64,000 bases of DNA from Stegostoma tigrinum (GCF_030684315.1 NC_081363.1:83041678-83105677); one strand, 5' to 3'; positions 1,070-62,890 are shown, counted from the stretch's first letter. Notes: a model not told the origin generated them from the letters alone. Program-made: numbers and translations.

Positions 1070-1217
1070 ATGGAAACACTTCGCCTCAAATAAACAATTC
1101 AGTATCACAAAAGCTGATATCAGCGAACTCCAGCTACTATGACTTGATTCAATTCTATTCTTGTACTTCGTGACCTCAATCCTCCCCTACTTGGCCCAGC
1201 GTCTCTGCATTCAGGCC
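1070..1217 (+). pseudogene. Decayed coding exon 1 of EEF1AKMT3/METTL21B-like pseudogene (psiA)
   Basis: GGTGAATT..ATG context resembles the A2 start (GGAGAATT..ATG). SSYY..QFY aligns to A2 PSCY..EFC, and S-V-S-A-F to GVSAY. Ends GCC|GTAAGT like A2 exon 1. Frameshifted, with stops and loss of VWD. Confidence 0.5.
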
Positions 1218-1259
1218 GTAAGTATTTTGCTGTATGTGCAACAGATCCCCTACGTTAAC

Positions 1260-1545
1260 ATCCCAGATGTTACTATCTACAAGATGCACTGCAGAAATTC
1301 ATCTGCCCTCTGTGTCAAACGGCAAGGACAGATATAAGGGAACACCATCACCTGGAAGTTCCCCTCTTAGCTACTCACCATGCGGATTTTGAAATATATT
1401 TCCGTTCTTTCACTGTCACTCAAAATCGCAAAATTCCCTTCCTAACGGTATTGTGGATCTACTTACAGCACATGGGCTTATGCAGTTCAACTTGGGAAAC
1501 TAAGCACAGGCAATAAAAGATGGTCACCCAATGAGGACCACATCT
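1260..1545 (+). mobile_element. Degraded LINE 3' fragment (L2/CR1 group)
   Basis: Similar to other LINE 3' remnants in the window (43150-43790, 58020-58260), ending in GGCAATAAA..CCACAT. Confidence 0.45.
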
Positions 1546-1680
1546 GAGGAGTCAATTAAAAATTATAACCTGTAGGTAAATAGTTTTTTCCAGTTCTATT
1601 CACAGAAATAGACCCATGAGTCTGTGGTAGTCTGTAATTCACCTCCATATTGTAATTAACCTCGATATTGTGTTTCACTC

Positions 1681-1985
1681 GGCAGCACGGTGACACAGTG
1701 GCTGTCACTGCTGCCTCACAACGCTAGGGAACTGGGTTTGATTCCTGTCTTCATTGAATGTCAGTGTGGAGTTTACATGTTTTCCACGTGTCTGCATGGG
1801 TTTCGGTTGAGTGTTCCGGTTTTCTCCCGCGGCCCTGAGGATGTGCAGGTTATGTAGAGTGGCAATTTTAAATGCAGGGTTAGAGAATAGGATGGGGTGT
1901 TGTACCTAGATGGCATGCTCTTCGGAGGACTGGCGTAGGCTTGATCGGCCGAATAGCCTCTATCTTCGCTGTGGGGATTCTCTGA
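1681..1985 (+). mobile_element. HE1-like V-SINE
   Basis: tRNA-like head GGCAGCACGGTGACACAGTGG, V-domain GTGTGGAGTTT..GGGTTTC..CCGGTTT, CR1-derived tail GGGGATTCT. Confidence 0.85.
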
Positions 1986-2137
1986 TATTTGGAAGGTAGC
2001 ATTGCATCTGATCTACATTTGAACTTTTAATTTCTGTTGACGTCTCCAAATCACAGTATCTTCAAATCTTACAGTATAGAAGAGGTCCATTAGCCCATCG
2101 AGCGTACGCCAAAAAAAACTACAGTAAATCTATACTA

Positions 2138-2304
2138 GATAACAAGGTGTAGCGCTGGATGAACAGGCCAAGCAGCATCAGAGGAGCAGGAAAGCTGACG
2201 CTTCGGGTATTCTGAAGAATGGTCAAGACCTGAAACTTCAGCTTCCCTGCTCCTCTGATGCTGCTTGGCCTACTGTTTTCATCCAGCTCTACACCTTGTT
2301 ATCT
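2138..2304. mobile_element. Inverted (palindromic) PLE terminal-repeat insertion
   Basis: AGATAACAAGGTGTAG... is mirrored by ...CTACACCTTGTTATCT; degenerate hammerhead core near the centre. Confidence 0.8.
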
Positions 2305-2817
2305 ATAGTTGATCTTTTTTTCTCCTGTCTGATGTATTCATTACGTCATTCATATTGCGTTTCTCTCTGATTTGCAAACTCTGCCTTAAACAATTACACT
2401 ACAGGTAATAAAACTATCATCTTGTCTTCAATAAGAAAATTCTGAACTAAGTACAAAATATTGGAAATTTGAAACAAAAAAACAGAAAAAGTGGACAGAA
2501 GAGTCTGACAGCGTCTGTGGAGAGGAACAGAGTTAATGTTTCAAGTCCAATATGACGTTTCCTCAGAACACTGAATTCTAAACTTTTCCTTTTTTTATCT
2601 GCTCTAATGGCATTGTTTATTTAGCTCTTTAAAAATGGTTTTTAATCAAGTTACATGCTTTAGTTAGTTTTTCTCTGCAACTTGAAGCTTAGCCTAGAAA
2701 TGAAGTCTCTGACTTCATTTCAAAAGGAATGAATTACACATGCTCCTTTGGAACATTTCTAATGGCAAACAGCATCAGAGAAATTCCTTTATCCCAATCA
2801 TTGGTGCCATCTCCCCA

Positions 2818-6230: not shown

Positions 6231-6432
6231 GGTTGCTTTCCACCATGCTACTCATGCTTTTTTTGATTTTCAAAGGTCCCCCTGCTGTTCCCGCACAGTT
6301 TCCTTCTGGTCCTGACTGTTTCAGGTGCACGTACTCACTCCAAGTTCCAGTTCTGCTTTTAAAAAAGAAATGATAAACAAAACTTACATGTGAAAACACA
6401 GCACACAGTTGTTTTAAATTGCAGAATTAAAA
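6231..6432 (-). repeat. Recent ~200 bp copy of 22670..22868 (B1 intron-0 end, 5' UTR and first 8 codons)
   Basis: Direct alignment shows about 10 substitutions and 3 gap bases over ~200 nt. Confidence 0.95.
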
Positions 6433-7754: not shown

Positions 7755-8144
7755 GTGGAAATATTGGTACAATAGATCAGCTAAGCGTCCTGAAACAAAT
7801 ATAAAGCAATGTCAGAATTAACATTCCCGGTGCCGGTCGACCACGTAAACAAATCTGACCTTTAACACTGATCGAGAATCACACAAACGTTCTTCCGGAT
7901 TATGACCATCCTTGTTTCGAACGTTGTGTCTTCTTTTCAAATCCATGCCAAATTAATGCAGACATCGTGCCATTTCTCAAATCAAACCACTATAATTTAT
8001 TTTACTGGTTAATTAAAACATTCGTATCAAAGCAATTTTCCTACCAAAATCCTCTACCTGTATAGTTTAATTGCAATATTTACAGTATAAAGGACAAGGA
8101 TATTTATATATTCCAAAATTACCAAACGCGGGGTGGCCCTCTAA
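7755..8144 (+). pseudogene. psiA exon 3
   Basis: CATCAG|GTGGA acceptor. VLKQI*SNVRINIPGAGRPRKQI*PLTLIENHTNVLPDYD and KDKDI align to A2 exon 3. Stops at 7802 and 7856, plus frameshifts. Confidence 0.9.
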
Positions 8145-9024
8145 TGCAAAGAATGCATTTCCCTGTCTCTAAATTTAGTACTATGGTTTCTGGGCTTCGC
8201 TGTCGCTGGCTTAACTTTGAAGTCATATGTGCTAACTAAGGTTTATTTTCTAAATTTAAGTTCCATTGATAATTTATCTCTTCCTAAATCACACGAAATC
8301 TCTCGCGCCGGCTGTTTCTCTGATATCAAGAAGTTACTTGATACCTTCGAGGTTGGCAAGGTACAACTAGCAGGAACCGCACAAGCAAACTTCGGTTTGC
8401 TCCTAGCATGATACATTATGTAATTCTTTATCGTAAATATGTATTTTCTGAGCTGGCATGAACAAGATAACCAGCGGATGATGAGTTGGAGATTGCTGTG
8501 AAATGTTGGACTCTATCGTAATGTCTTCAGTCCTACCTACCGGTTTGCCTCTTTAATGCTCTAACCGCCTCGTCGTGTGTGAGACTTTACTATTAACATG
8601 GACAATCCCTGTTGGTGGCAAGAGGTTGAAGCCATCACATTGTCCTGCACTTGGCACTTGAAGTTGACCGAGCGCTGACGAATGAAGCTATTAGCTGGGT
8701 CATTCAAATTTGACAGATCCTTTGGGAGTGAAAGTAATGGAAAATGTTGTCAACCGACCCAGAGGTTAGCAGGAGTTTAAGAACCAGTAACTAACAGAAA
8801 ATGAATACAGTGCCCCCAGTATATTCTCTACATAATGGTAATTATTAATAGGGTTGCTAAAACATGCATTTTAGTTTTCTCAAATACAATGGTGATGCAC
8901 ATCGTCTTTAGGCGTGTGCTCCCAATGCTTATATTTTCAAGAGTAGTTAAACACATTGCACTCTTTGCGAGCAGATTTTTTTTTTCGTCGAATATGGGTG
9001 TCTGTCAGTCAGTTTTAACTCGAT

Positions 9025-9623
9025 TGGCTTTCATTATCAGGGGGATTGAGTTTAAGAGTCGTGAGATCTTGTTGCAGCTCTATAAAACTTTGGTTAGACC
9101 GCACTTAGATTACTGCGTCCAGTTCTGGCCGCCCTATTATAGGAAAGATGTGGATGCTTTGGAGAGGGTTCAGAGGAGGTTTACCAGGATGCTGCCTGGA
9201 CTGGAGGGCTTATCTTATGAAGAGAGGTTGACTGAGCTCGGACTTTTTTCATTGGAGAAAAGGAGGAGGAGAGGGGACCTAATTGAGGTATACAAGATAA
9301 TGAGAGGCATAGATAGAGTTGATAGCCAGAGACTATTTCCCAGGGTAGAAATGGCTAGAACGAGGGGTCATAATTTTATGCTGGTTGGAGGAAAGTATAG
9401 AGGGGATGTCAGAGGCGGGTTCTTTACACAGAGAGTTGTGAGAGCATGGAATGCGTTGCCAGCAGCAGTTGTGGAAGCAAGGTCATTGGGAACATTTAAG
9501 ACACTGCTGGATATGCATATGGTCACAGAAATTTGAGGGTGCATGCATGAGGATCAATGGTCGGCACAACATCGTGGGCTGAAGGGCCTGTTCTGTGCTG
9601 TACTGTTCTATGTTCTATGTTCT
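9025..9623 (+). mobile_element. CR1 (HER1-like) LINE, 5'-truncated
   Basis: ORF2 C-terminus LYKTLVRPHLDYCVQFW..RGDLIEVYKI..FFTQRVV; (TTCTATG)n tail. Confidence 0.95.
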
Positions 9624-9778
9624 AATAAAGTGACTTAAATGTTGCTGCATTCGGTACACGCACATCAAGGCAACGATTTCGTTGGAAAATGTTGATGTAA
9701 GAGACATCGTTCAGCTATGGTAAATTGTCCCTGGCAACAGTGTATCGACTGCCTCATGAACTAGCGTCAAGCGTCATT

Positions 9779-10545
9779 CATAGAACATAGAACATTACAG
9801 CACAGTAAAAGCCCTTCGGCCCTCGATGTTGTGCCGACCTGTCATACCGATCTCAAGCCCATCTAACCTACACTATTCCATGTACGTCCATATCCTTATC
9901 CAATGACGACTTAAATGTACTTAGAGTTGGCGAATCTACTGCCGTTGCAGGCAAAGCGTTCCATTCCCTTACTACTCTCTGAGTAAAGAAACTACCTCTG
10001 ACATCTGTCCAATATCTTTCACCCCTCAATTTAAAGCTATGCCCCCACGTGCTCGCCGTCACAATCCTAGGAAAAAGGGTCTCCCTATCCACCCTATCTA
10101 ACCATCTGATTATTTTATATGTTTCAATTAAGTCACCTCTCAACCTTCTTGTCTCAATGAAAACAGCCTCAAGTCCCTCAGTCTTTCCTCGTAACACCTT
10201 CCCCCAGGCAACATCCTAGTAAATTTCCTCTGCACCCTTTCCAAAGCTCCCACATCCTTCTTATAATGCGGTGACCAGAATTTACACAATACTCCAAGTG
10301 CGGCCGCACCAGAGTTTTATGCAGCTTCGCCATAACCTCTTGGTTCCGGAACTCGATCCCTCTATTAATAAATGCTAAAACACTGTATGCCTTCTTAACA
10401 GCCCTGTCAACCTGGGTGGCAACTTTCAAGGATCTGTGTACATGGACACCGAGATCTCTCTGCTCATCTACACTACTAAGAATCTTACCATTAGCCGAGT
10501 ACTTTGCCTTCTGGTTACTCCTGCCAACGTGCATCACCTCACATC
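9779..10545 (-). mobile_element. CR1 (HER1-like) LINE, 5'-truncated
   Basis: EQRDLGVHVH..LVRPHLEYCV..RGDLIETYKI; tail reads (CATAGAA)n on the + strand. Confidence 0.95.
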
Positions 10546-12416
10546 ATTTTGCATTTCTACATTGTTCCATTTGCGGCACCACCATCGAGCTTCGTGAGAT
10601 GAATGGAATCCTGAACACGGTCCGTCCATAATTGTCATTGATAATGTTGTGGTGAAACAATGCAGCTCCTGCTGACATATCTCCCAACATGCCGAAGGCC
10701 GTGAGTTCCAGGGTTGATGGCACTATGACAGTGAAGCAATCCTAGTCTATTAATAAGTCAGGAAGTCTTACTGAATAGTTATTTTGCCTCAATATTTACC
10801 CCATAGACTGTGCGATTTTTACGTGGATTTTACTGTGAACCCGTTCACTCCTCCTGAACTGGGGGAAATTGGTGGTGGTTCTTTCCATCTATTGCTATCC
10901 TGGCTCTCACAGCGGACGTGCACAGCTCAGGGTATTCTTCTCCCGCTAATATTGTCATGAGAGAGATGCAGTTGTGACAGGTCTATCTGTCGACCGATAA
11001 GGGCGAGAGAAAATCGCTTTGTTTTTGGTCTTGTTGGCCCTGTTGGCACTTAATCCAAATAGACAAATAAACAGTCAGTGGACCAGTTGAATATTTATGA
11101 CAATCCAGAAGTTCAGTGGTCCAAAGTTACTGAGACTGGATTTACAATTCAAATATATTAACTAAATTTACACAAGAACATAAGAAATAGAAGCAGAAAA
11201 TCGTCTACTGCTCCTTAGGAACTTCTCTACAATTCACAAATAATGTGATTGATTTGATTGCAGCTTCTATTGTGTGAGTATGGGGAACTGGAACTTTAAG
11301 CGGCCGATTACGAGGCGTCAGTTTGACGTCACCAATCATTTTTAGGTCGGGAAATTACTTCGTCTAACTTTGCTACCTGTGTAATAAACATCTCCTTAAT
11401 AAAGCACTTGCTATGTAACATTTCGGCCGATGTTCTTCTTACAAATTGGCTTCGATATCCCTTTCCTGTGTGCCCTCCCTGCAACCAATCCCATCCTTCG
11501 TATAACCTAAGATCTCTTGACTAACTTAGACTCTAAAATATAAAATGACCCGACTTTCCATTGTTTGTGAGCAGGAGAAGAATTCCAAACATTAATGACC
11601 GTCTGAGAAAGGAAATTACTTCTCAGCAAGGAGTAGCTGTATGCCATCTGCGTGTAAACGTTGTAAAGTAGCAATTCTAAATTTCGATTTGTACTCTAAT
11701 ATCTGTAGAGTAACATCAGCATTCTCTAAATCCATATTACTACCAACAAATGTTTTGTTTTGGTGAATTGAACATTGTTTCCCCGTTCCAATGCAAAGGT
11801 ACAAGCGTGCTATTATCCAACGGTGACCCCATAATAAGAATCATCATACTCGCATAATGCATATTTTGTAAATAGGGTCACACTTTAACGAAATTGCACC
11901 CTGTTTCAGCTCAGTATTAGGTAAATGCAAGAAATGATCCACATATTGCAACATCAAGTTTTAATTTGCAATTTTTTGTCATCATTCATGCTTCTTTTTA
12001 GTTATTTGGTTTGAAATTGCATTCTTTTGTTGCAAAAACGTAAAGCTGTGATAGTTTAATCTGCACACCCTGTTCTATTTAAGCTCTAAAACACTATCAA
12101 AGATTATCATCTTTGCTGATGACAATCTGTACAATTAACACTCGTCGATGAGTTAAATATGCACAAGACCAGAATATGTCACTATTTCCAAAATCTAAAA
12201 TACAATGAGATCATAGTCTAAACATTTTCACTGCTTACGAAAGGTGTCTACTTGTCTTGTAATTTATTTCAATCAATGAAAAATAAGTTCCAGTAGTTTT
12301 AAATCGCTTGCACGTCAGTTAATGGCAATTGTTTAATGCAGCAAAAATGAGTACCGCCACAGCATAAAGCCTGAATAAAGGTGATTTCAGTTAAAAAAAA
12401 TGCCTTTGTAAAATTT

Positions 12417-12640
12417 GAGATAACAAGATGTAGAGCTGGATGAACACAGCAGGCCAAGCAGCAACAGAGGAGCAGGAATGCTGACGTTTTGGGCCTGGAC
12501 GCTTCTTCAGAAATTTCTAAAGAAGGGTCCAGGCCCGAAACGTCAACCTTCCAGCTCCGCAGATGCTGCTTGGCCTGTTGTGTTCACTCAGCTCTACACC
12601 TTGTTATCTCAGATTGTCCAGCATCTGCAGTTCCTACTAT
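12417..12640. mobile_element. Palindromic PLE terminal-repeat insertion with 13 bp TSD
   Basis: CTTTGTAAAATTT at 12404-12416 and 12641-12653; arms centred on CAGAAATTTCT. Confidence 0.9.
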
Positions 12641-12771
12641 CTTTGTAAAATTTCTCAGGTTAAACTATGCAAAGAGAAGAAACGACAGCAAGGTACATGT
12701 TTATTGAAAAACATATTTTTCAAGACAGAATGCGGATTCCAATGCATCCTTAGGAGATTAATTTGAGAAGC

Positions 12772-12895: not shown

Positions 12896-13290
12896 TTAGT
12901 GCCCGTGGCGCGGGTGTTTTCTAGTCAGTTTGTAAATGCAATTACTTCCACTTGTATGAAGTATTTCGCTGTTAAACTGCTTAGGCAGGAGGTCGTCGTG
13001 AAAATTGATGGCGCCCTCTCTGGCCGCCAGGTTAGAAGACATGTAAACTATTGTTTTGTCGGTGCAGAAGTACAACAGTGTCTGCAAAAGACCAGCAAAT
13101 TGAGAGGGATTGTACACAATGTCTGAACCCAGAATGTAATCAAAGTCAGTTGGAAAGTTGTTCTGATCGTCACCCCAAGATAGGGCCCGGATTGATGAAC
13201 GGTGTCTGCTGCTGGCTGGAACGTTAGCTTGAACGTTGTATTCTATTTGATTCAAAACATATGACCTATCCGTCAAGGTGACATCTCCAC
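12896..13290 (-). CDS. EEF1AKMT3: EEF1A lysine methyltransferase 3-like (METTL21B-like) paralog B1, last coding exon
   Basis: CCAG|GT acceptor. GDVTLTD (post-I), NVQANVP, RALSWG and LGSDIVY (motif II + DxxY) match METTL21B. 395 nt to TAA. Confidence 0.93.
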
Positions 13291-14075: not shown

Positions 14076-14246
<171 letters not shown>

Positions 14247-40272: not shown

Positions 40273-40338
40273 TGCAAGTGGGCGCTTCGAGCTGGCGCCC
40301 TGGCCCCACTACAAACATCGGAGAATTCATTTGAGAAG

Positions 40339-42090: not shown

Positions 42091-42360
<270 letters not shown>

Positions 42361-48850: not shown

Positions 48851-51510
48851 ATTAAAAAGGGTGAAGAAATGTATTTTAGAAAGTAGAATGTGGGAATTTG
48901 GTATAAACAACTAGTAGGGGTTAATGCGGTGCAGTAGCAGGCAAATCCGTGATATATATAAATCTTTGTGGTATGCAAGACACATTAAGAAGACCATTCA
49001 TAGAAAACATATACGCACATCACTGGTTTTATAGCCTAATGCTGAACAAGGGAAAATATGCTTTAAAAATGTTAAAATCGCTGATTGGACGTAACAGGGT
49101 TGTGAAGCCCAATTCCCCCGTGCATGAACAGAATGTCAGAAATTGGGAACACTTCAAAACTGGATTGTTCTAATATTTTTCTGCGTATCATGAGATCTCG
49201 TTTGACTGGTGTTGTTAAACTAGCAGTTTTCCAGGTTCCTCGTAAATATTGACAAATCGGAGGAACAAGAAAGGCCATAAGAATCACCGAGGTCACAATC
49301 TTCCATTGAACTGACGTCATTCCTGGCGCAATACGTAGTCTATTATCAGGTTGCGCTTGGGGAAGGTGAGATGTTTTGGTCTTAGACAGAATGACAACTT
49401 AACCTTCAGATGAAGGTGGGCAAGGAGGCACCCTGTCCCATGGTCATCAGTTGAAAAAAAAAACTGGATAATTGACACAGCTTAAATCACCAGTCCTTAG
49501 AAATATGATATATCAACACGTAATCAAAATCAGGAAGCAGCCCACATCAAGGAGCCGTCTTCTTCATACGGAAGGTCCACCGGAAAGGGGGCGAAAGACT
49601 TAAGATCAGCTCCCTAACACTTCGATTGGAGAGCAAGAGGCTGTCTTGACATGTGTAATGAGATCAACATATTCCAGCAACAGTTCATATCAGTGAACTA
49701 CCTACAGTTGTGATTTTTTTTCTCTAACACCTACACTACTGCTTAACAAATTTATCAACTATCTGAAAATTCGATTCCAATAGTCCACTGCCTATATTGA
49801 AGTTTTATCGACCCAAATCTCCAAACATTAACGAGAATAAATTCCAATCATGGAGCAGTTCCACTGAATAAAGGATTGCCATCCATCCCTAGGTCCACAT
49901 ACCGATTCCCCTCAAAAGCAACTCAGCTACTCACATCCCAGACTTCTTTTTTTATCCTGTATTGCTCCACATTAACTAATTTCAGAGAGTTATCCAAATA
50001 TCTTTTGGATTGAATCTGGCTCAATCGAACTCACATGCAACGTATTTCAGGCATTGCTGATCTGAAAGGTCTCTTGGCCTCCTCTTGGCTCTGCTTGTTG
50101 TTTGATGCTCATTAGTTGGAGTCTCTATGATACCCAGTTCTTGTCATATTTAGGCACAGACTGCTGCATATCTGTAGACAATCAGATGTGACTGAACATT
50201 ATGCAATGACCGGTGACACCCCCCATCTTTGACCGTCCATGGTCATTGATGAAGCAGGTGAAGGTGAGTTGGACTTGTACACAACCTTGAAGATCTCCTT
50301 CTGCCACGTCGTGAGCTGAGAATATTGGTCTCCAGAAGCCTCAGCCACGCTCTTCCCCAAGTTGTGCAGAGCCAGTGGAAGCTCTTCCCCTGTTCCAATG
50401 TGATTTCAGTTTTTTTGAATATTAGCGCTTGGCGTTCCCTTTTATTAAATATTTTCGCATTAGTTTATTTATCCAACATTGCAGGATTTCTTTGTTTCTG
50501 GGAGATTGGCAACAGAGTGAGTGACTAAGAGGGGAGGGATATAAGGTTGGAAATATCATCTGTTGTAGAATGAAAATAGGCCCAAATTGAACTAAAGAAA
50601 TCCCCATCTGGTCAATGTCATCCCAAGAAACCGTCCTTTTTTGCTGCAGTTATCAAAGACGTTATTCTATCCCAGTAACCACTCACCATTGTCCGACGCA
50701 CCGCTGTCCAAAGCCAATGACCATATTTCCTTGACCATACACGAGGTTCACATTCCTTTGACCACCTAGAGTGCACTGACAACTTCTTTTCGCAGTTAAC
50801 CATCCTTAAATCTAAGTGAACAAAACACCACACTGTTCGCATGCACTGTCTGTTCCTACTGTTCAAACACTTTCACCATCCGACACTCCACAACCAACTA
50901 CACTAACAAAATGGACAACAATAAATGTCAGCGATCGCTCCCCAAGCCGTATTATATACACACAATTGTCTGCGCTCATTTTCAATGCTCTATTGCCAAC
51001 AAACTACGGTCGGCGGCGAATAGTACATACACGATAATCCACAACAATCAATCCCTCTCTTAGAACACGAACTATTCACACATCACTTTCCACACTCTAC
51101 ACTCCAATGCTCATGTCCCGTCGATGTCTCGCTGCCCAGAACCTGAGTTTCATTTCTCACAATCCGCACTTCAATACCAAGATCTTGCAATCTCGAACCC
51201 ACTGTGTGCACCTTACGGTTAGTACCTTTCTGTTCAGAATGCATTGCCTTCCCATTTTTATACCCGCCATACACTTCAGCCCATTTTTCTACAGTGCACC
51301 GTCCGCAATCGAGCACCTGCACCCTCCCAGCGCAACCCACTGACTGCACCCCCTTGTCAACACTCTTTTGTCCGAGGTAACTGTGGTTCCTACCACGAAC
51401 CCCTCCACCGCAACCCCCAACACAGAACCTCCACAGAGGTGATCACCAGCAGCCATTGATCTACTAATTATCTATCAATAGGCTGAAACCGGGATTACTG
51501 ATCTGTGGGA

Positions 51511-51659
51511 GAGAGATAATGGGAACTGCAGATGCTGGAGATTCCAAGATAATAAAATGTGAGGCTGGATGAACACAGCAGGCCAAGCAGCATCTCAGGA
51601 GTGCTCCTGAGATGCTGCTTGGCCTGCTGTGTTCATCCAGCCTCACATTTTATTATCTT
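51511..51659. mobile_element. Palindromic PLE insertion with perfect 55 bp arms and 15-16 bp TSD
   Basis: Arms 51546-51600 and 51605-51659; TTACTGATCTGTGGGA at 51495-51510 and 51659-51674. Confidence 0.95.
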
Positions 51660-52094
51660 TACTGATCTGTGGGAACAGGAAACTTTGCTTCCAACAGCAG
51701 CTGGTTGACCAGAGATCAACAATTCTCTCTCTCTCTAACCACAGCGCCAACCACATCAGTGGCCTCAAGCTGGTACTGCACCCTGCCATACTGGAGGTCA
51801 TAAGTGCTTGTGGTCGGTCTGCGTAGTTAGAAGAAGGGCCTGAGAAGCCAAGGAAGGAGGGAAGCATTCGCGGACACTCTGAAGGGCCAGGGAAGCCAGT
51901 TAAGGCAGAATCTTCTTCCATCGCCAGGCCGGGGGCACAAGTGGCGGCTTAGCTTTCGACATTCATGTCATTGGTTTAATCTGAGCCATGAGATTAGGCC
52001 ATTTCTTAGGCTTTTATTGACATCTTAGGGCCTGCTTTGGAACATCGGCTGGCGGCCCACTGGATGCATCTCCAAATTATATCTGCATGAACAC

Positions 52095-52265
52095 TGAGGG
52101 GCAATTTAGCATGGCCAAGCCACCATCAACTTAACGTCTTTGGACTGTGGGAGGAAACCGGGGCACCCGGCAGGAACCCACGCAGACACCCGGAGAACAT
52201 ACAAACTCCACACAGATAGTCACCCGGGTCTGAAATAGATGCTGTGATGCAGTGCCTCCACTGTG
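52095..52265 (-). mobile_element. HE1-like V-SINE fragment
   Basis: TTTGGACTGTGGGAGGAAACCGG..ACCCACGCAGACAC..AAACTCCACACAGA. Confidence 0.8.
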
Positions 52266-52407
52266 CGTCCGTGCTGCCCCGTGCTCCTCTGCACCTGGAT
52301 CAAAGCAAGTCTCGGTTTCGTTGCAGAGCAGTCTGTTCTCACGCCAATGCAACCTTCTTGCTAGGCAATCTGTTTTCACTTAACTTTCCAAAATTCAGCA
52401 ATTACAG

Positions 52408-52735
52408 AGTCATAGAATCATAAAGTTGTACAGCATGGAAACAGGCCCTTCGGTCCAACTCGTCCATTCTGATCAGGTATCCTAAATTAATCTAGACCCA
52501 TTTGACAGCATTTAACCTATATACCTCTAAACCCTTCCTACTCATGTACTCATCTAGATGCCTTTTAAATGTTGTAAATGTATCAAACTTCACCACTTCC
52601 TCTGGCAACACATTCCATTCACGCATCACACACGGCGTACGATAAACTTGCCCCTTAGGTCCCTTTGATATCTTTCCCCTCTCACCGTAAGCCTATGCCC
52701 TATAGTTTTGGGCTCCTGCGTCCTATTAACCCTTA
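52408..52735 (-). mobile_element. CR1 3' fragment
   Basis: GTCATAGAATCATA tail; CACCACTTCCTCTGGCA..TTCCA segment. Confidence 0.8.
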
Positions 52736-52847
52736 ATGATATGGCTTAGAGGTGTCTTTGTTTTTGATAATACACACCGCATCCATTCACATTCGGAATC
52801 ATCTTAAATAATTCACCGACTCCAAGACAACAGCATAACATCCACCT

Positions 52848-53073
52848 AAGATAACAAGGTGTAGAGCTGGATGAACACAGCAGGCCAAGCAGCATCAGAG
52901 GAACATGAAGACCGACGTTTCGGGCCTAGACCTTCTTCAGAAATTTCTGAAGAAGGGTCTAGGCCCAAAACGTCGGCCTTCCTGCTCCTCTGATGCTGCT
53001 TGGCCTGCTGTTCATCCAGCTCTACACCTTGTCATCTCAGATTCTCCACCATCTGCAGTTCCTACTATCTCTG
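52848..53073. mobile_element. Palindromic PLE insertion with 13 bp TSD
   Basis: ATAACATCCACCT at 52835-52847 and 53074-53086; centre CTTCAGAAATTTCTGAAG. Confidence 0.92.
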
Positions 53074-53131
53074 ATAACATCCACCTCTTTGGTTTGCCGA
53101 TGCATTAACATGCAAAGTAGTATTTTATCGA

Positions 53132-53262
53132 TGAATGAAGGGTCTAGGCCCGAAACGTCAGCTTTTGTGCTCCTGAGATGCTGCTTGGCCTGCTGTGTTC
53201 ATCCAGCCTCACATTTTATTATCTTGGAATTCTCCAGCATCTGCAGTTCCCATTATCTCTGA
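53132..53262 (+). mobile_element. PLE terminal repeat with 14 bp TSD
   Basis: TAGTATTT(T/C)ATCGA at 53118-53131 and 53263-53276. Confidence 0.88.
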
Positions 53263-54558
53263 TAGTATTTCATCGAGTTGCGTGAGCAGTTCATCATTTC
53301 CCCATTAAGTGATTTCTGCATTTGAAGACGGTAAATATTTCTGCGTCACCATTGTTGCTCATTTCTAGGTTCAAAGTGGTTGAACTCACATTGCTCGCCG
53401 TTGAACTCCGTTTGTCATCAGCTTGCTCGCTGATTGTGCGTGCATTGTGGCGTATATCTGAAGTAGGAATATACAGGACATCATATGATTTGCTTTTGCA
53501 TTTTTGAAGCCAATCAATACAAAGGACAAGTTCAAATAATCCACAATATGCGAAACCATTCTGTAAACTGATACATATCATTCTTATTGTGATTTTTATT
53601 CATTTTTATTTTTGCATATTGGTGTGATTTTAAACCACAGATTTTGGGAAAAGTGGAGCAAATAAATCACTATTCATTCAATTCCTTCAGTGGCGGGAAC
53701 GATTTTAAGCTGTATCACAGTTCTATTGCTTGCAATAAAATGAAACTAACAATTACAGATGACATGCACATTTTCGGAAATGCAAGCAATATAACTTTTG
53801 GCTTTTCATTCAGAGAGTTCAATGGTATTCTACACTTTAGCCCAGAAGAATGAATTCCAGCTTTAAGGGTTGCTGCGGGTACCAGAGATATACCAGCATC
53901 CCATAGCTCCAAATGAAAAAAATGAGAAGGTCGCATTTAAAATAAAAACCAAGAGTAGGCATAGAGTTGGGGTAGAGTTATTATTAGTGTTATGTTGGAG
54001 AGGTTAGTGAAGATTAAGGATACCTTCATCACATTCCAGAACTGGAACGAAATTGAAATCCCGTTCATTTCGAACAGTGGAAGAAACCTGTTCTGTGAAT
54101 GGCCAGGAACTGAATCAATGCAAAGAGCGATTAATTCTGTTTTCTAATAACATGCTACCAATTAAATTGCGCCCCCTGTGATTTAGCCAGTTTACTTTAA
54201 ATATTTTTTTAATTGTAAGAGACGGACTGATCGTCATAGCAGTGCAATTGTGGGTTCATCACGGATACCAAACTGAATCATTTCTATCCTGGAACCTTAT
54301 TTTGCTCCTGGAACTACCTTTAAATTATGTGCCTGTCCGGGGTGGTCTACGCGACGTTAGCAACATAAATGTCTCCTATTCAGTCCCTTTATGAGCTGTT
54401 CTTATATATGACCCTCGAGACAAATCTTCGGCTCGCAATTTCCAGTAAGGGATACGTACGTTTAGTGTTTTAACGGGTCGTGCCAATGTGTACCACCAAT
54501 ATTTTTGACGATCCAGGAAAGTGAAAAGGACAGAAAATGGAAGGTAAAGCACGTGATA

Positions 54559-54564
54559 TTTATT
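54559..54564 (-). promoter_or_regulatory. Candidate poly(A) signal of B2
   Basis: AATAAA on the minus strand ~75 nt after the stop. Confidence 0.45.
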
Positions 54565-54637
54565 CAAATGAAAATGTTAGCAACGCTCGGAAGGAAAACA
54601 GTAGATGGTTGTCTATCTTCCGACCCTGCATCAGAAA

Positions 54638-55032
54638 CTAGTCCGCATCGTCTGGAGCTTTTTTTGTCACTTTGTAAATGCAACTACTCCCACTGGTATG
54701 AATGAGTTGGCTATGAAATTGCGCCGGCACGAGCTCATTGTGGAATTCAGCCGACCCCTCTCTATACTTCACATCCGAGCACAGATAAATTATAGTCTTT
54801 TCTGTGCAGAAGTGCAGCAATGTCTGTATAAGATTCGGAAATTGTGATGGGCTGTACACGATGTCCGATCCAAGAATGATATCAAAGTCGGTTGCGAAAC
54901 TGTCCTGGTCGCTACCCCAAGCCAGGGCGCGGATTTTGGAACGGTGTCTACAGTCGAGCGGAATATTAGCCAGTATGTTATACTCGATTTGTTTCAAAAC
55001 GTACGGCCTATCCGTCATGGTGACATCTCCAC
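54638..55032 (-). CDS. EEF1AKMT3: EEF1AKMT3/METTL21B-like paralog B2, last coding exon
   Basis: GCAG|GT acceptor; GDVTMTD, RALAWG, LGSDIVY; 395 nt to TAG, the same length as in B1. Confidence 0.93.
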
Positions 55033-55194
55033 CTGCCAAAAAAGAAGTCATATTTATCCTCTGGCTCTCCCCAGCGTGAGTTGCCACATATTCATTGCTA
55101 AATACGCTCTAAGTCCTTGCCGCTGAACGCACCCACATTACTCTACGACACCTACCTCACCGCATCCACCCCTACTCACATTCCGAATAGTTCG

Positions 55195-55481
55195 TAGAAT
55201 CCCTACAGTCTGGAAACAGGCCTTTTGGCCCAACAAGTCCACACCGACCCTCATAGCATTCCACCCAGTCCCATTCCCCTATAATCCACCTAATTTACAC
55301 ACCCCTGAACACTACGGGTAGTTTATCATGGCCAATCCACCTAGCCTGCACTTCTTTGGACCGTGGGAGGAAACCGGAACACCCGGAGGAAACCCACGCA
55401 GACACGGGAAGAATGTGCAAACTCCGCACAGACAGGCGCCGTCATGCTGTGAGGCAGCAGTGCTAACCTCTGAGCCACCGT
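55195..55481 (-). mobile_element. HE1-like V-SINE
   Basis: Head ACGGTGGCTCAGAGGTTAGCACTGCTGCCTCACAGC, V-domain and tail on the minus strand. Confidence 0.9.
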
Positions 55482-55759
55482 CAATAGTCAATTAAATAGT
55501 TATTTAAATTAGCTCAATATTTTGTCTTGCAATTCGATGGCTTCTTTTTTCTTTCTAAGAGGGAATGCACATTAGAAACGATTACTAACAGGAATGCGCA
55601 AACAGCTTCTGAATCGCTCGCTGCCTGTCCATTCGGGTCTGCGAATCTTGGGGAGCGAGGGATGTGCAGACGCTGTAAAGTAACAACTGTGTGTTTGTTG
55701 TTGCTTACGATTGAGTCAGGGATCAGTGGAATAGATCATGGAGTACGGATGTACATGTC

Positions 55760-56580
55760 CTAAACAGGATATGTAACTAGAGGCATTGTGACCATGGGGA
55801 ACGATTGTAGCAAGGAACATAATATAACCTAATATTTAGCAGATGAAATTTAATATCAGGATAATCGAGGAGAGGCTGTATACAATAGCGCTAGAGTTCT
55901 AAAAGAGGTACGAGAGCGGAGGGAACCAGAATAGATTGCCAAAATTGTTAAAGGTGGCAAGACAGGTTGAGAAATTGTTTGAAAGGGCAGACAGCGTCCA
56001 GTGCTTTACAAAACGAAGAGTAGTCTACAAACTCCAGGATGTTATAGCGTATCTTTCTGAAACAATGGCTCGGCCTCAGTCGAAGCATTAAGTCCAATTC
56101 TGGACGACACAATCTTAGAAAGATGCGAAGACGTTGGTGAATGTGCAAATAAGATTTACCAGCACGGTCCCAAGAACGAGGGTCTTCACTTTCATGGATA
56201 ATTGGGGGAAGAGGGAGCTGCTCTCTTTAGAGAGAAAGTCGACAGCAGATTCGATAAAGGTGTTCGAACTGACGAGGAGTCGAGAGAGAGGAAACAGACA
56301 GAAATTGTTCCCATCAATAGAATTAAAACAAAAACGTAGTTGCTGGAAAAGCTCAGCAGTCTGGCAGCATCTGTGAAGGAAAACAAAACAGAGTTAACGT
56401 TTCGGGTCCGTTGACGCTTCTATTTTTGTTACTATCCGCAGCTCTTTCGGTTTTTATTTTCTATCAATAGAATTGTCCAGTGTAAGGCTATGGGGAAAGG
56501 AAGGAGAGTGGGCTCAGCAAAGTTGCCCGTAGGTATAGGGCCGAATAGAAACGTACTGCGCTCTAAATATTCTATGATCC
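55760..56580 (+). mobile_element. Degraded CR1 with a nested second-family PLE repeat (56325-56462)
   Basis: CR1 ORF2 remnants; the nested repeat is flanked by ATCAATAGAATT at 56313-56324 and 56463-56474. Confidence 0.65.
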
Positions 56581-57490
56581 TATGACAGTAGCATGTAAAT
56601 AACTAATTAGTAACGAGAGAGATAGCATTTAGAGGCAGCACTATGTTGGGAATAATTATAACTATGTTCTGGGCTGGTTATTGGGCTCTGGAAATTCTAT
56701 ACCATGCTGAGTCACGCCATGCAGCGACGGGGTGCAAGTGGGAACATCATCACACGCTGGCTGTGACTTTTAAATCTGCGGAACTTCAAAGGCGAAATAT
56801 GTAGCTTTGACAAGGTCTAGTCAAAGAAAGTCCCCCAATAATCAGACACGGCACTCAGCTACAACGCAGTCAAAAGGGACAAATCCCTTATCGTGAGTTA
56901 TAAGCAATGTAAAGTCAATGGCCAGCAAGTGCCCAGCATCCATCCAGGTCAGTACTACCTTCAGAAGCAGGTGTCCCTTTCAGATTCCGAAGGTTGTATT
57001 GTAGTGAAATTTTCAATAACGAGAACAAAGTTGGTTCGAGAACCAAGAGACAAAAGGCAAAACCTTCAGTCCGGCAGGGATTATTAGGAGCGCACATGAT
57101 CTAGCAGTTTGTTATAACACTATTTCCTGGTGATTGTGTCGTTAATTGTTAGTTGCACGTTGTTATTTTCATGTTAACAGTCTTTTGATTTTCCTTTATG
57201 ATGTTGATCAGTAAAGAAAACGCACAAATGCATCAGATAATGCAGAGGGGAACCACTGCCTCAGTCATCGGTGGGTCGATTGCTCTTGTTGGTGAAGCGA
57301 CACAAATTTGGTCGATTTGAAGGTTCCCGTCCAACTATTGTCCGATTGCCCCTTCCTTCTAACATCGAGGATTGTGAAGTTAGTAGTGCACTTTGGGGAG
57401 CACGTCACTAAGGGAGGGGTCTCGTAAAGTCTCCGATTGGGCGCTATCCCCTGCGTTGCGTCATGAGGAGCTACTGCTGTGTTCACTTAC

Positions 57491-57602
57491 CCAACAGCAC
57501 CGCCAATATGCCCACAATTCCAGTGCCAGAGCCGAGTTCAAGCACCTTCTTGCCGGTAAAATCAATCTTCTCAGCCTCAAAATAGCGACAAAGGACAATC
57601 CC
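57491..57602 (-). CDS. EEF1AKMT3: B2 coding exon 2
   Basis: CAG| ... |GTAAGT, 112 nt: [38 protein letters not shown]. Confidence 0.95.
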
Positions 57603-58721
57603 CTGAGGGGGTAAAAACACCCACAGTCTGACCAAGATATTTATCTGTAAACGGTCACAGTTTAAAGATAATTCTGGAAAATTGGCAGGCTCGTTAAGGC
57701 TCACTCAGACACCTTATAATGGAGACATTAGCGAACCCCTATGAGCAATTACAAACTCTTGGCTTCAGTTCGGAGAGGACAGCGAATCTAATGAGAAGCA
57801 ATTTTTCAAGGGCCACTAACCCTGAGTGCCCTTGCAAACGAGGAACTGCGTTCATTATGTAAACATTGTGCATAGCCGGGGGTGGACATGAGAACTTTTT
57901 TTTAGGTGTTGGATTACAGTTTCACTGCATTGCAAGTCTGAGGTGATGACTGTGGACTTTGTGCAGAGAAAAATACTTTACAAACTGAACCACACTAAAC
58001 GGACCTTGTTGGGTTAAGGGCGTCACTGAGCAGCAAAGGATTATTTCCTGCAAAGGTGCGTACTTCTCGCGATATTTCCACGTAATGTGTCATAAATGTC
58101 CCTGTTACTTCACTGTCGCTGAGTCGAAATCCGGAACTCCCCTCCCTAACAGCAGTGTATGTCCCTACATCCCAAGAACAGCAGTAATTCAATAAGACGG
58201 CTCACCATCACCTTCCCCGGGGCAATTAGGAACGGGCAATACATGTTTGCCAGGGGGCGGCGTCCATTTCCCAGGAATAAAAAGAAGTACCGCCGAATAC
58301 ACGTGTGCACAGCAGCAGCACCTCGGCAACCGAGTCTGATTTAGAATGCCACAGGTGCAGTGCACTACAGTATATGTTTTCTAAATTACAGCAATGATCA
58401 AAGATTAACAAATAATCTGGCTCCCGTGTGACATCACACTTGCGATGAGCCCTGTCTGACAAGGAAGCCAGTTCAGATTTTGAAGGCTGGTGCAATTACA
58501 ACATTTAAAAAGCTGGTTATATGAATAAGAGGGGATTAGAGGGATATGGGCTAAACATTAACAAATGGGAGTGGTCGGCATGGATGAGTTGGACCGAAGG
58601 GCCTGTTTCCGTGCTATACATGACTCAATCAGCTTCTAATCTGCCCCTGTGCAGCCAAATTGGCAAAGGCGTTCATTTTTAATTCCGAAGGAAACTTTTT
58701 GTAACAGTCCACCAGACTTAC

Positions 58722-58853
58722 AGGTCCCCAAACATAAGCAGAGACGCCTAAAGAAGCTCCTTTAAACATCGTGATCTTTAGAGGGTGTCCGCTGAATTCA
58801 TAATTCTTCTCCTCCAACTCCAGGAGGGGATAGTCAGCCGTGCTACAGTTCAT
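58722..58853 (-). CDS. EEF1AKMT3: B2 coding exon 1
   Basis: MNCSTADYPLLELEEKNYEFSGHPLKITMFKGASLGVSAYVWGP|GTAAGT; 44 codons; candidate acceptor TTACTTCTAG at ~58972. Confidence 0.9.
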
Positions 58854-59708
58854 CCTCCGTGCTGTCAAAGGGCTTCTCGCCAATTTCCAAACAGACGTCT
58901 CCCAATCCAAGACAGAGCCCTGTCAGTTTCGCCTCCGCGGATCCACTCCAAGTTGTTGCTGTTTACTTTACCTAGAAGTAATAAAAGAACTTACGGAAAA
59001 CTCTGGTGTAGACAAGAAAAGGAGTACACCACTGTAGCTGAGCTTTAAATCTCTGAATATAACGGGAAGCCCCGCATGTGAACGCACGACTATCTTCTGT
59101 TTAAAATGGATGTAACAGGCGAAATTCACCAAATGGGAAAATTGGGTTAGAATAGTCATGTGTTTGCTTTTGACAGGCAGAGACTCGGTGAGCCAAAGGG
59201 ATTTTTTTTCCTGTGCTGTGCATTTCTTTGACTGTATGGACATGAACGGAGGTTGCCCTATGAATAGCTTAAGCGGACGATGCCATTTTGCTGCTAATCA
59301 GCTTCACAAGGCTGATAGAGGTGTTATCACAAGCTAAAATCATTCGCAAGTCGAGGAACTGGGAGCATACCGCTTCCTGGGTCCAGTGGGCGAGAAAGAA
59401 ATACCCCTGTTCTGCTTGGCCCACAAGAGGTGCGGTGTGCAGATGCTTACTCTATGGATCTGGCCCTCTTCTGGTCAGGAGCGGGAATCCACTGTTTAGC
59501 GTGGAATGGCAGGTTTGATCCCTGCATCCAAAAGACAATGGTTCTGCATCAGAAAAAAAACATTGCGGCGCTCAGAGTGAATTGTTTTTGCAGAGGGCTG
59601 GCACAGACAGGGCAGATACAATGGCATCCACTTGTGATACTCGTCTCCTCTTAGCTCCTAGCTTTCCAGGGCGTCCGGAAATCCAATAAGAATTGCTTAA
59701 ATATCAAT

Positions 59709-60621
59709 GATAATGAAATGTGAGGCCGGATGAACACAGCAGGCCCAGCAGCATCTCAGGAGCACAAAAGCTGAGGTTTCGGGCCTAGACCCTTCATCAG
59801 AGAGGGGGATGGGCTGGGGGTTCTGGAATAAATAGGGAGAGAAGGGGAGGCGGACCGAAGATGGAGAGAAAAGAAGATAGGTGGAGTGGAGAGTATAGGT
59901 CGGGAGGTAGGGAGGGGATAGGTCAGTCCAGGGAAGACGGACGGGTCAAGGAGGTGGGATGAGGTTAGTAGGTAGGAGATGGAGGTGCGGCTTGGGGTGG
60001 GAGGAAGAACAGGTTAGGGAGGCAGAGACAGGTTGGACTGGTTTTGGGATTCAGTGGGTGGAGAGGAAGAGCTGGGCTGGTTGTGTGGTGCAGTGGGGGG
60101 AGGGGACGAACTGGGCTGGTTTTGGTATGCGGTGGGGGAAGGGGAGATTTTGAAGCTGGTGAAGTCCACATTGATACCATTGGGCTGCAGGGTTCCCAAG
60201 CGGAATATGAGTTGCTGTTCCTGCAACCTTCGGGTGGCATCATTGTGGCACTGCAGGAGGCCCATGATGGACATGTCATCTAAAGAATGGGAGGGGGAGT
60301 TGAAATGGTTTGCGACTGGGAGGTGCAGTTGTCTATTGCGAACCGAGCGGAGGTGTTCTGCAAAGCGGTCCCCAAGCGTCCGCTTGGTTTCCCCAATGTA
60401 GAGGAAGCCACACCGGGTACAGTGGATGCAGTATACCACATTGGCAGATGTGCAGGTGAACCTCTGCTTAATGTGGAAAGTCATCTTGGGGCCTGGGATA
60501 GGGGTGAGGGAGGAGGTGTGGGGGCAAGTGTAGCATTTCCTGCGGTTGCAGGGGAAGGTGTCGGGTGTGTTGGGGTTGGACGGCAGTTTGGAGCGAACAA
60601 GGGAGTCACGGAGAGAGTAGT
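59709..60621 (-). mobile_element. Young 5'-truncated PLE with an open GIY-YIG endonuclease frame and 13 bp TSD
   Basis: VVYCIHCTRCGFLYIGETKRTLGDRFAEH..HF..LGTLQPNGIN (60014-60484); TSD CTTAAATATCAAT at 59696-59708 and 60622-60634; hammerhead-like motif 59771-59800. Confidence 0.93.
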
Positions 60622-61054
60622 CTTAAATATCAATATTGTGTTTTTCTGAAAAGATGAGCCATCAGTCTCCGACATAACTTACTTTTATGGTCTCGGCCGC
60701 CTGTGGCCGTCAAAGTGGACGCGGACGGCTCTCAGTTTTCGTCTGAGGAAGGATCACTGGGTTTGCACTGTAAACTGATTTTTTTTTCTTCACAGATGCT
60801 GTCAGACTAGCTGGACTTTTCTAGCAACTTCTGTTTTTGGTCCTGATTTACAGCATCCGCAGTTCTTTCGGGTTTTTCTCTAGTTCTCTTCCTTAAGTAT
60901 TAACTTCTTATCTGACTCAGATCCAGCATTTAGAGGTGGATTGGGGAACTTAAGACTCCTGTTAGTTTCGTCAGGGATTTTATTAGTTGCTGTCACTGTT
61001 CGTCGTTTTGTCGTGAACTCAGATGTTCTTAAAAGAGATTGGTGATATCTTGCT

Positions 61055-61625
61055 ATAGAGTCATAGAGATGTACATCACACAAACAGACTCTTCATTCCA
61101 ACTCGTCCATGCCGGCCAGACATCCCAAACCAATCCAGTCCCATAGGCCAGCTTTGGTCCATACCTCTTGAAACCCTTCTTGTTCATGTACCCATTCAGA
61201 TGCCTATTAACTGTTATAATTGTACCTACATCTACCACTTTCTCTGGCAGCTCATCCCATACATGCACCACTCTCGCCTGAAAAAAGTTGCTCCCTAGGT
61301 CTCTTTTATATCTTTCCCCGATCACCTCAAACCTATGCCTTCTAATTTTGGACTCCCCCACTCTCGGAAAATGGCCTTGGCTATTCGCCCTATCCATGCC
61401 CCTATGATTTTATAAATCTCTCTGCTGCCACCCATCAGGTCCAGGGAAAATAGCCCCAGCCTCTTCCCTATAGCTCAAACCCTCTAACTCTGGCAACATC
61501 CTTCTAAATCTTTCCTGAACCCTTTCAAGTTTCACAACATCTTTCCTACAGCAGGTAGCCCAGAACTGAACGCAGTATTCCAAAAGTGGACTAACCAATG
61601 TCCCGTGCAGCCGCAACGTGACCTC
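61055..61625 (-). mobile_element. CR1 3' fragment
   Basis: TLVSPLLEYCVQFW..LERVQERFRRMLP..RVVHVWDELP. Confidence 0.88.
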
Positions 61626-62680
61626 CCTTTCGCAGGTACTCCACTATGGCGGGGAAGGCATGGCCACAGCCATAATCCCTGCAAAATGTTGCCCCAGGGT
61701 CGTCAGAGGCAGGTCAAATGGAAAATCTTTAGTTATACGGTGGAAAATACAAGGATACATATCTTAAAGGCAGGAAGTTACGGACGATTAAACCATAATC
61801 CCCACCAATGGATCACAGATACTGGTCCAAATTCAAAATGTACATGACATCTATCAGTTTCACTTGGGTCTTCGAGGTCCAGTCCTGTTTGGAATCATTG
61901 ATCTCAGTATACTCAGTAATTCGTCTTCATTTAAAACTCACTCGTTTGCAAAGGCTCTTGTAGTGCAGTGGTACTGCCCCCACCTCGGGCTGGGAGACCT
62001 GGATTTAAGTCGTCCCCCTGTTCCAGACATAATGTCTACGGAGAGGTCGGTTGGGAAATAGAAAATGCACACGTTTCTGTCATAAGCCCCGATCTAATAC
62101 AGAGGGTTAACCCTGCAACACAATCCCACTTGTGACTGGAAAGGGGTGAATTCCACCTTCTCTTGTGTTCTGCATGTCTTAAAATCTCTCCGTTTTCTTT
62201 CTTTACAAGTTAGAGTTAACCGAAAATAGATCAGTTATCGTATTGTATGTTTTTTGCAAGATTGTTCTCACAGATAATAATGACTGCTATTATTCCCAAT
62301 AACAACATAACTATTACATTTCTGTATATTTTGTACTGCTAACAGTAGTCTAAGGATTCTAACCATAAATTGCATATAGCGTAAATTTAAATAGTAATTT
62401 AGAAATTCTTTGAATAATTGATAAGGTTTGTTTTACCATTTCCAATGGTTTTTGCAATATGAATATTGTCAGTTCCCAATCCTGTGATAAGCGGATTACA
62501 AGAAATAATTTGTACTGCGTTCTTCCATCGAGATTCTGGGTTTTCCAGACTCTTAGATCTCGCAGAACGAAAGGATGCGTTTGCTTAACGCTCCGTGGAC
62601 GCAGCAGGGGAGGTGGAGGGAGGAGCCAAGAAAGCGGATCCTAAGGAATGAAACAACAGTGAGGAAGAAACAGAACTCAC

Positions 62681-62790
62681 TTCAAGACACCTCGCTGTTC
62701 CCTCGGGGATCTGGCGCTGCCTTTGTTTTAGCCCACGTGTCAAATGCACGGAACAGAAGTGCACTGTTGCACTGAATGTGTGCTCCAGTT
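62681..62790 (-). other. Inferred non-coding first exon of B2
   Basis: Donor CTTGAA|GTGAGTT shared with 25980. TSS approximate. Confidence 0.55.
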
Positions 62791-62825
62791 TTAACCTGTC
62801 AAAATCTCGCCAGAAATAATGGCGA

Positions 62826-62890
62826 CCAGGTTATTATCGCAAGATGACGACTGTTGACCAATGGTGGAGGGGGGGGGGGGGGGGGTGGGG
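62826..62890 (-). promoter_or_regulatory. B2 promoter module: TTATCGCAAGATG, CCAAT, G-tract
   Basis: Motif 62834-62846 and CCAAT 62858-62862 have the same 24 nt offset as in B1; G17 run at 62869-62885. Confidence 0.6.

Follow-up and report, generated by a model that had tools for sequence, protein, structure and literature searches.

Three intact METTL21B-like genes and a pseudogene at one end of an ancient tandem array in the zebra shark

We analysed a stretch of 64,000 nucleotides from the zebra shark Stegostoma tigrinum (GCF_030684315.1, NC_081363.1:83041678-83105677), hereafter the window. It holds four copies of an EEF1AKMT3/METTL21B-like methyltransferase gene, three of them (B1, A2 and B2) intact and one (psiA) a pseudogene. 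Translation and alignment of the window gave the order psiA(+) B1(-) A2(+) B2(-), exactly as proposed in an earlier note made from this DNA. The intact copies were modelled as follows:

12896-13290, minus strand: last coding exon of B1, 395 nucleotides including the stop, with AATAAA at 12777 and 12705
14099-14210, minus strand: 112-nucleotide exon of B1, with motif I ELGSGTG
22563-22792, minus strand: first coding exon of B1 with its 5' untranslated region (UTR); ATG at 22694, coding part 22694-22563 (132 nucleotides), predicted acceptor near 22792
40217-40512, plus strand: promoter-like region and coding exon 1 of A2; ATTGG, TATAAA at 40267, CpG-rich, coding part 40339-40512
42118-42229, plus strand: 112-nucleotide exon of A2, from the splice model
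45347-45828, plus strand: last coding exon of A2, 482 nucleotides, with a C-terminal extension of 33 residues
54638-55032, minus strand: last coding exon of B2, 395 nucleotides, with AATAAA at 54564
57491-57602, minus strand: 112-nucleotide exon of B2, from the splice model
58722-58971, minus strand: first coding exon of B2 with its 5' UTR; ATG at 58853, coding part 58853-58722, predicted acceptor at 58972

B1 and B2 each consist of coding exons of 132/112/395 nucleotides with GT-AG sites, encode 212 residues without internal stops, and share 145 of these 212 residues (68.4%); re-computation reproduced to the digit the exon lengths and the identity given before. A2 is likewise intact, with coding exons of 174/112/482 nucleotides and 255 residues, and is identical to B1 at 102 and to B2 at 110 of 212 positions. 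The exon phases (0, 1) agree between the copies. Spliced A2 is identical to the RefSeq protein P0001 of this species, and B1 is identical from Met4 onward to P0430, so both already stand among the shark and ray models that carry the automatic name 'EEF1A lysine methyltransferase 3-like'. B2 agrees with RefSeq P0219 over 194 residues. This 332-residue model follows the last exon as far as residue 194 and then takes 138 residues from downstream pieces (54695 to ~53400, and 47213-46866); we rejected it as the main B2 product, its extra 116 residues having no Pfam match and the last strand being dropped. P0219 is probably a faulty model of B2 and possibly a rare isoform. Four sequencing runs behave as genomic DNA (contigs pass through introns, differences are few, and there are no exon joints among those shown). 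They cover 40150-59150 piecewise with few differences to the window, which excludes misassembly as the source of A2 and B2. Coding differences in A2 at 40351 (predicted T5S) and at 42134 (H to R, in the 112-nucleotide exon) are probably alleles.

To place these genes, we combined sequence, profile and fold comparisons. The best match in the PDB was human METTL21B (E 3e-63), with METTL21A at 1e-33 and METTL21A/C/D between 1e-33 and 1e-18; the comparison covered METTL21 members other than METTL21E. Membership of the METTL21A/C/D subfamilies was rejected, METTL21B being far closer. The family 16 profile PF10294 (cut-off 21 bits) was passed by A2 (115), B1 (99.7) and even the last exon of B2 alone (53.3). 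The predicted structure of B1, the copy that was modelled, reached a predicted local distance difference test score (pLDDT) of 92 and a template modelling (TM) score of 0.91 to 4QPN, with a seven-beta-strand fold and an N-terminal hairpin. As set out in a section of PMC5416902, the hallmarks of family 16 are motif 1, post 1, motif 2 and (D/E)XX(Y/F); A2, B1 and B2 present them as ELGSGTG, TD, W-G and DIVY, and in psiA they have decayed. On sequence grounds the window genes belong to the METTL21B branch of family 16, so the family named in the earlier note stood, and the copies do not fall into separate METTL21A/C/D subfamilies. Those enzymes share the fold and the lysine cage (TM 0.80-0.87), but are far more distant in sequence and are not parents of the genes described here. 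A2, B1 and B2 are predicted to methylate protein lysines in dependence on S-adenosylmethionine (SAM), and the intact copies would be catalytically active.

The window proved to be one end of a larger array. At least eight annotated copies lie on one 96.4-Mb Stegostoma contig (P0001, P0430, P0219, P0439, P0420, P0241, P0036 and P0256), five of them outside the window, which does away with the idea of a set of three genes. Single contigs of other species carry at least 16 (Heptranchias), 11 (Heterodontus), 9 (Mustelus), 8 (Cetorhinus), 8 (Scyliorhinus torazame) and 5 (Pristis) copies, counted as 90% clusters among the matches listed and possibly including faulty models. Elasmobranchs account for 62 of the 63 matches listed in one protein search, and divergent Callorhinchus proteins were placed in the same expanded clade. 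Accession runs gave us the order of the further members, which fall into types A, B and C: GCC35807-813 reads A2, B1, Ae, Af, B3, Ac, Aa, and XP_060684634-641 follows the same order. Chiloscyllium punctatum and Hemiscyllium give B2, A2, B1, Ae, Af, B3, Ac, Aa, C (B2 and C via locus tags), with no gene between B1 and Ae in accession order. If accession numbering follows chromosomal position, as we infer, this suggests the array [Aa Ac B3][Af Ae psiA B1][A2 B2] in window orientation; it tells against this arrangement that the order beyond the window comes from accession numbering.

Further loci were seen outside the main array: P0258, P0262 and P0085 on a 12.4-Mb Heptranchias contig, the P0073 cluster on a 10.9-Mb Rhinoraja contig, and P0049, P0090, P0099, P0249 and P0257. 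They include near-identical sets (15 in the P0258 cluster), which suggests recent bursts of copying.

Next, we compared the array with the shark orthologue of EEF1AKMT3. Trees were built under LG+G4 with no mixture model, one of them by FastTree, which omits P0001 (A2), P0219, P0044 and P0022. In the 62-row tree, a conserved shark and ray clade (P0047, P0263, P0048, P0302, P0303 and P0305; support 98/84) lies outside the expanded clade (100/97), and the window genes fall in the latter. Where a contig is given, the proteins of the orthologue clade lie on contigs other than those of the array, and the array contig is the larger. Two of them, P0303 and P0305, from two species, are annotated as isoforms of the mitochondrial elongation factor Ts (TSFM), in keeping with the human neighbourhood, where METTL21B lies beside TSFM/METTL1. 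The separate conserved clade on other contigs and the joint TSFM annotation indicate that the window genes are paralogues and not the EEF1AKMT3 orthologue, and methylation of eEF1A Lys165 therefore cannot be assumed for them. EEF1AKMT3/METTL21B (eEF1A-KMT3; 4QPN) is their best sequence and fold match, shares all four motifs and is their nearest named relative in the trees. The window genes differ from it as array paralogues on another contig, the shark orthologue being separate, and in having neither the orthologue's N-terminal VFP..LF segment nor its KMR.EH loop.

The array could also be an older paralogue, for instance from a whole-genome duplication, that bony vertebrates lost. An array origin before the split of bony and cartilaginous fishes, with the orthologue joined to the bony clade, was unrejected in the approximately unbiased (AU) test (p=0.35), and it would suit this view that the array and the orthologue lie on separate contigs, the array on the larger one. 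These points, and a root of the 62-row tree that renders bony vertebrates paraphyletic, weigh against a founding duplicate within cartilaginous fishes. The best tree nevertheless unites the expanded clade with the shark orthologue clade at 100/99 (the bootstrap not being fully settled), and none of the named bony-vertebrate proteins was placed within the expanded clade by the FastTree or the 62-row tree, so we hold the older origin to be improbable. Among the named matches listed there was no sign of a METTL21B array in bony vertebrates, which appear to keep one gene. Many bird proteins annotated as EEF1AKMT3 stand among the matches listed, whereas a passage of PMC5416902 reports the gene to be absent in birds.

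Phylogenetic tests showed that the duplicates are old. Each window gene has nearer relatives in other shark orders than within the window: B1 matches whale shark P0216 at 98% identity, copies from Heterodontus, Mustelus and Scyliorhinus at 77-80%, and B2 at 68%, and B2 clusters with sawshark copies (100/94). A carpet-shark clade of B1 and B2 was rejected (AU p=0.002), as was a clade limited to galeomorphs (p=0.004). By these sequence tests the B1/B2 split is older than the galeomorph radiation and the set is not species-specific; a species-specific origin was rejected on the same two p values, and the narrow lineage-specific set that had been proposed falls with it. B1 further clusters with ray copies (92/81), favouring a split before that of sharks and rays; speaking against so early a date, a tree that excludes rays from the B1 group was unrejected (p=0.069).

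The history of the fourth copy, psiA, bears on how the array grew. Its remains, and a much younger fragment of B1 that lies among them, are:

1070-1217, plus strand: possible, unproven remnant of psiA coding exon 1, ending GCC|GTAAGT like A2, with a score within background
6231-6432, minus strand: sharply bounded young copy of part of B1 (22670-22868; 189/202 identical), comprising the splice acceptor, the 5' UTR and the nine initial codons
6628-6739, plus strand: psiA exon 2, 112 nucleotides, with AC in place of the acceptor AG and a decayed SAM motif I (IRFRTGTG)
7755-8140 (end approximate), plus strand: psiA exon 3, broken by four stop codons and two frameshifts, DxxY lost

Exons 2 and 3 of psiA were detected by tblastn (E 4e-10 and 2e-13). 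The candidate for exon 1 scored 28 against A2 exon 1, a score that 42 of 970 window slices reach, and 46.5 in a second comparison with a background of 34.3 +/- 6.8; the segment, VSAF and then the donor, is thus a plausible but not significant remnant. A 112-nucleotide exon 2 and matching phases had been claimed for all four copies, and this holds for B1, A2, B2 and exon 2 of psiA, exon 1 of psiA being no better than background. The motifs QIRPLT and DKDI, cited as A2-specific residues of psiA, did not bear this out: psiA reads QI*PLT, and Ae (P0439) has IRPLI and DKDI, as Ad (P0269) has VRPLV and DKDI. psiA is nonetheless A-type. The A2 lineage takes the top five frameshift-aware scores, and among 110 positions tested the best is beside A2, inside the carpet-shark A2 pair. 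This placement is weakened by the base of the Ae/Af/Ad clade, which lies only 1.5 log-likelihood units behind, and by the fact that most placements were unrejected. The proposed grouping of psiA with A2 and of B1 with B2 thus keeps its types, psiA as A and B1 and B2 as B, and loses the exact position of psiA. The proportion of synonymous differences (pS) between psiA and A2 is 0.65 (0.55-0.76), with 0.36 at nonsynonymous sites (pN) and exons ~60% identical; this pS overlaps that of B1 and B2 (0.56, 0.47-0.67), and since all values are near saturation they cannot order the events.

The B1-derived fragment of 202 nucleotides (94% identical) sits within intron 1 of psiA, 195 nucleotides before exon 2, and is much younger than the gene duplications. 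It was probably either put there by templated insertion or left as a scar when a local segment was duplicated and deleted. One could suppose that psiA arose late, by copying of A2 within carpet sharks, was never functional and has nothing to do with the B1/B2 duplication, the fragment of about 200 bp marking the same event; the best placements inside the carpet-shark A2 pair would fit, and a B1 5' piece just before psiA exon 2 echoes the order of B1 5' end and A2. We consider this very unlikely, given that the fragment is 94% identical to its source while the psiA exons are only ~60% identical to A2, and that a pS of 0.65 with a pN of 0.36 shows a past under selection.

An ancient inverted duplication had been invoked for types A and B, followed by tandem duplication of a convergent A+B cassette of 37-40 kb. 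Both types are old. In the best tree, type A is sister to type C (91/93) and not to B, with A+B unrejected (AU p=0.33), so that an origin of A and B by one inverted duplication is unproven. The best trees of the two types are congruent, (B3,(B1,B2)) and ((Aa,Ac),(A2,(Ae,Af,Ad))), and B2+B3 was rejected (p=0.002); to be set against a shared history, B1+B3 (p=0.12), A2+Aa/Ac (p=0.20) and Aa/Ac+Ad/e/f (p=0.25) were unrejected, and the congruence is not significant. A dot-plot of the window returned 21 low-copy matches, none collinear outside the B genes bar one of 63% (1340-1491 / 43580-43730), which we take to be an old mobile-element end; the other matches outside B look to us like old mobile-element fragments. 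Between the proposed cassettes no collinear non-coding similarity was found beyond the exons, UTR and promoter of the B genes, a loss to be expected at such an age, and the intron flanks of psiA/A2 and B1/B2 are mostly at background. The cassette is therefore left with a gene order that fits, as we reconstruct it, and with overlapping pS values; it lacks collinear non-coding similarity, and Ae and Af, which lie immediately beyond the window, are likelier A partners of B1, joined by psiA as the third.

In its minimal form, this history has one inverted duplication making A and B, a single duplication of the cassette into psiA+B1 and A2+B2, and psiA as the true sister of A2. Its assets are the best scores and placements of psiA with A2, the overlapping pS values and the unrejected A+B grouping. 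We find it unlikely: Ae, Af and further A and B genes follow just past psiA by accession order, the shared motifs recur in Ae and Ad, A goes with C in the best tree, and the intergenic similarity is not collinear. A wider form, with repeated convergent A+B units, is plausible and unproven.

Signs of constraint were sought at the 5' ends and in the coding sequence. Two further features are predicted upstream of the B genes:

25980-26190, minus strand: predicted promoter block and non-coding first exon of B1; block 26161-26190, then TATAAA; the exon ends at a GT donor
62681-62863, minus strand: predicted promoter block and non-coding first exon of B2; block 62834-62863, GT donor, homologous to that of B1

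These sites, 3-4 kb upstream of B1 and B2, have in common a block CATTGG...CATCTTGCGATAA and, ~180 nucleotides later, an identical donor context. Of 630 slices compared with the upstream region of B2, the one at the B1 site matched best, scoring 96, with at most 68 for slices touching neither site. This is a fairer test than the chance figures for the block motifs, which are post hoc because the patterns were derived from the same two sites. The 30-nucleotide promoter-like block is kept between B1 and B2 although the introns are at background, and it matches the window in these two places only. Together with the 5' UTR acceptors, the block and donor suggest that B1 and B2 are probably four-exon genes whose promoters were duplicated along with them and remain conserved. 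The dN/dS ratio (nonsynonymous to synonymous substitution rates) of B1 and B2 is ~0.17 over 160 codons, and A2 begins at a CpG-rich start with a TATAAA box; promoter conservation, dN/dS and the A2 start are indirect signs of function. A term search for tissue data in the supplementary files of PMC13188829 gave no match (0/8).

The substrate-facing residues were then compared. In the portions of PMC10339199 and PMC9942839 that treat METTL21D, cofactor binding falls to Asp96 and Trp126, and Asp144 stabilises the lysine, which is caged by Val38, Trp43 and Tyr147. The METTL21D-p97 section of PMC10339199 has the substrate loop held by the S2-H1, motif II and S7-H5 loops, and part of PMC9942839 attributes target choice in METTL21A-D to residues away from the common cage. 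W57, D104, W133, D151, Y154 and V52 (P0318 numbering) are kept in A2, B1 and B2. From 77 bony-vertebrate proteins (those up to 250 residues) and 8 shark or ray orthologues we defined 92 conserved columns, of which 59 are kept across the array and 33 are orthologue-specific. Mapped onto the predicted B1 structure, 16 of these 33 fall in the N-terminal segment or in the S2-H1, motif II and S7-H5 loops. The orthologue residues changed are P17/L22/F23, A53, L155 and K181-M182-(R183)-E185-H186-T188, with replacements typical of each subfamily: the KMR.EH loop becomes ELRKRN in A2, NLAARE in B1 and DVKYRE in B2, and most subfamilies have a replacement of their own. A2, B1 and B2 retain 71, 63 and 64 of the 92 columns, compared with 80-81 in gar and shad and 92 in the whale shark orthologue. 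Array orthologues are 71-83% identical between carpet sharks and Heterodontus, and the EEF1AKMT3 orthologue 86%. Two considerations temper a functional reading of these counts: low retention at the 33 columns is partly by construction, because they were defined as variable in the array, and faster evolution alone could lower the numbers. At the V52 column, equivalent to Val38 of METTL21D, Ac, Aa and C have Phe or Tyr, which might alter the number of methyl groups added.

With the SAM and cage residues kept and three substrate loops changed, new substrates are likely, and A2, B1 and B2 would be intact SAM-dependent lysine methyltransferases with changed targets. The main alternative is that the array enzymes share the old substrate and divide the labour, methylating eEF1A Lys165 or a nearby lysine, perhaps on other eEF1A paralogues, with differences in tissue or stress expression or in dosage. 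The array is closest to METTL21B, A2 keeps R183 and T158, and, in the part of PMC5416902 concerned, the Lys165 region differs between eEF1A paralogues and methylation is inducible. We regard this as doubtful, since the whale shark orthologue persists with 33 of 33 orthologue-specific residues, B1 and B2 are without the N-terminal segment and the S7-H5 loops differ, and some ten subfamilies kept across shark orders would exceed the usual need for dosage. Our preferred reading, to which we assign a probability of about 0.6, is that the three intact genes and the pseudogene come from a METTL21B-derived tandem array of cartilaginous fishes, and that they encode predicted lysine methyltransferases whose targets are likely not eEF1A Lys165.

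In the history that we propose, an early duplicate of EEF1AKMT3 would have founded the array, and unequal crossing-over probably enlarged it ahead of the diversification of living sharks. Two duplications of a convergent A(+)/B(-) unit, with extra single-gene duplications of A, may have given the three bracketed blocks inferred from accession order, and psiA would have died long ago. Purifying selection would have held the catalytic cage while each subfamily fixed substrate-loop residues of its own, a course of neofunctionalisation, and the separate orthologue would still serve eEF1A Lys165. More tentatively, at somewhat less than even odds, cartilaginous fishes may possess an undescribed lysine-methylation system, in which ~10 METTL21B-derived subfamilies, present since before the shark radiation in the array and in still-expanding satellite loci, each mark a different protein and the orthologue keeps eEF1A Lys165.

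Introns and spacers of the window also hold repeats (2137-2304, 12410-12657, 37855-38195, 51509-51660, 52846-53270; 36921-38734; 60014-60622; 8805-10600; 40970-41500; 61053-61850), which we take to be a palindromic short element of very high copy number, a retroelement fragment that bears an endonuclease and occurs in inverted pairs, and reverse-transcriptase fragments of long interspersed nuclear elements (LINE). Six teleost proteins (P0064, P0077, P0078, P0082, P0088 and P0092) of 555-1923 residues contain two to six methyltransferase stretches, one cluster being named mettl21ca; they are possibly multi-domain METTL21C-like proteins or fused tandem models.

Our literature search, from which subscription papers mostly fell out, found no paper on the expansion, its subfamilies or a change of target. 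The text seen of the metazoan METTL survey PMC8662637 mentions no shark or cartilaginous fish, and the main text of the whale shark genome paper PMC8455134 mentions no methyltransferase. The closest precedent, going by an excerpt of PMC10238732, is the FAM86/eEF2-KMT expansion in primates, likewise a family 16 translation-factor methyltransferase multiplied in one lineage. Most of the FAM86 copies are pseudogenes within segmental duplications, whereas the shark array comprises ~10 intact subfamilies across shark orders and partly in rays. The same source describes human family 16 methyltransferases as having essentially one substrate each, and close members as taking different ones (HSPA, AARS1 and VCP for METTL21A, C and D).

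The expansion is real and ancient, and it seems not to have been described before; it exceeds in size and age what the earlier note supposed, and was built by ordinary tandem duplication. Annotation is corrected by it, in that many '3-like' models are not orthologues of the eEF1A enzyme. An old, conserved expansion into several subfamilies in sharks and rays is unexpected for a family 16 enzyme, and the array provides a matched set of natural variants with which to study how METTL21 enzymes choose their targets. It may also be a lead to methyl marks that only cartilaginous fishes have, and a system of some ten subfamilies, if true, would be a natural series in which three loops reprogram a family 16 enzyme.

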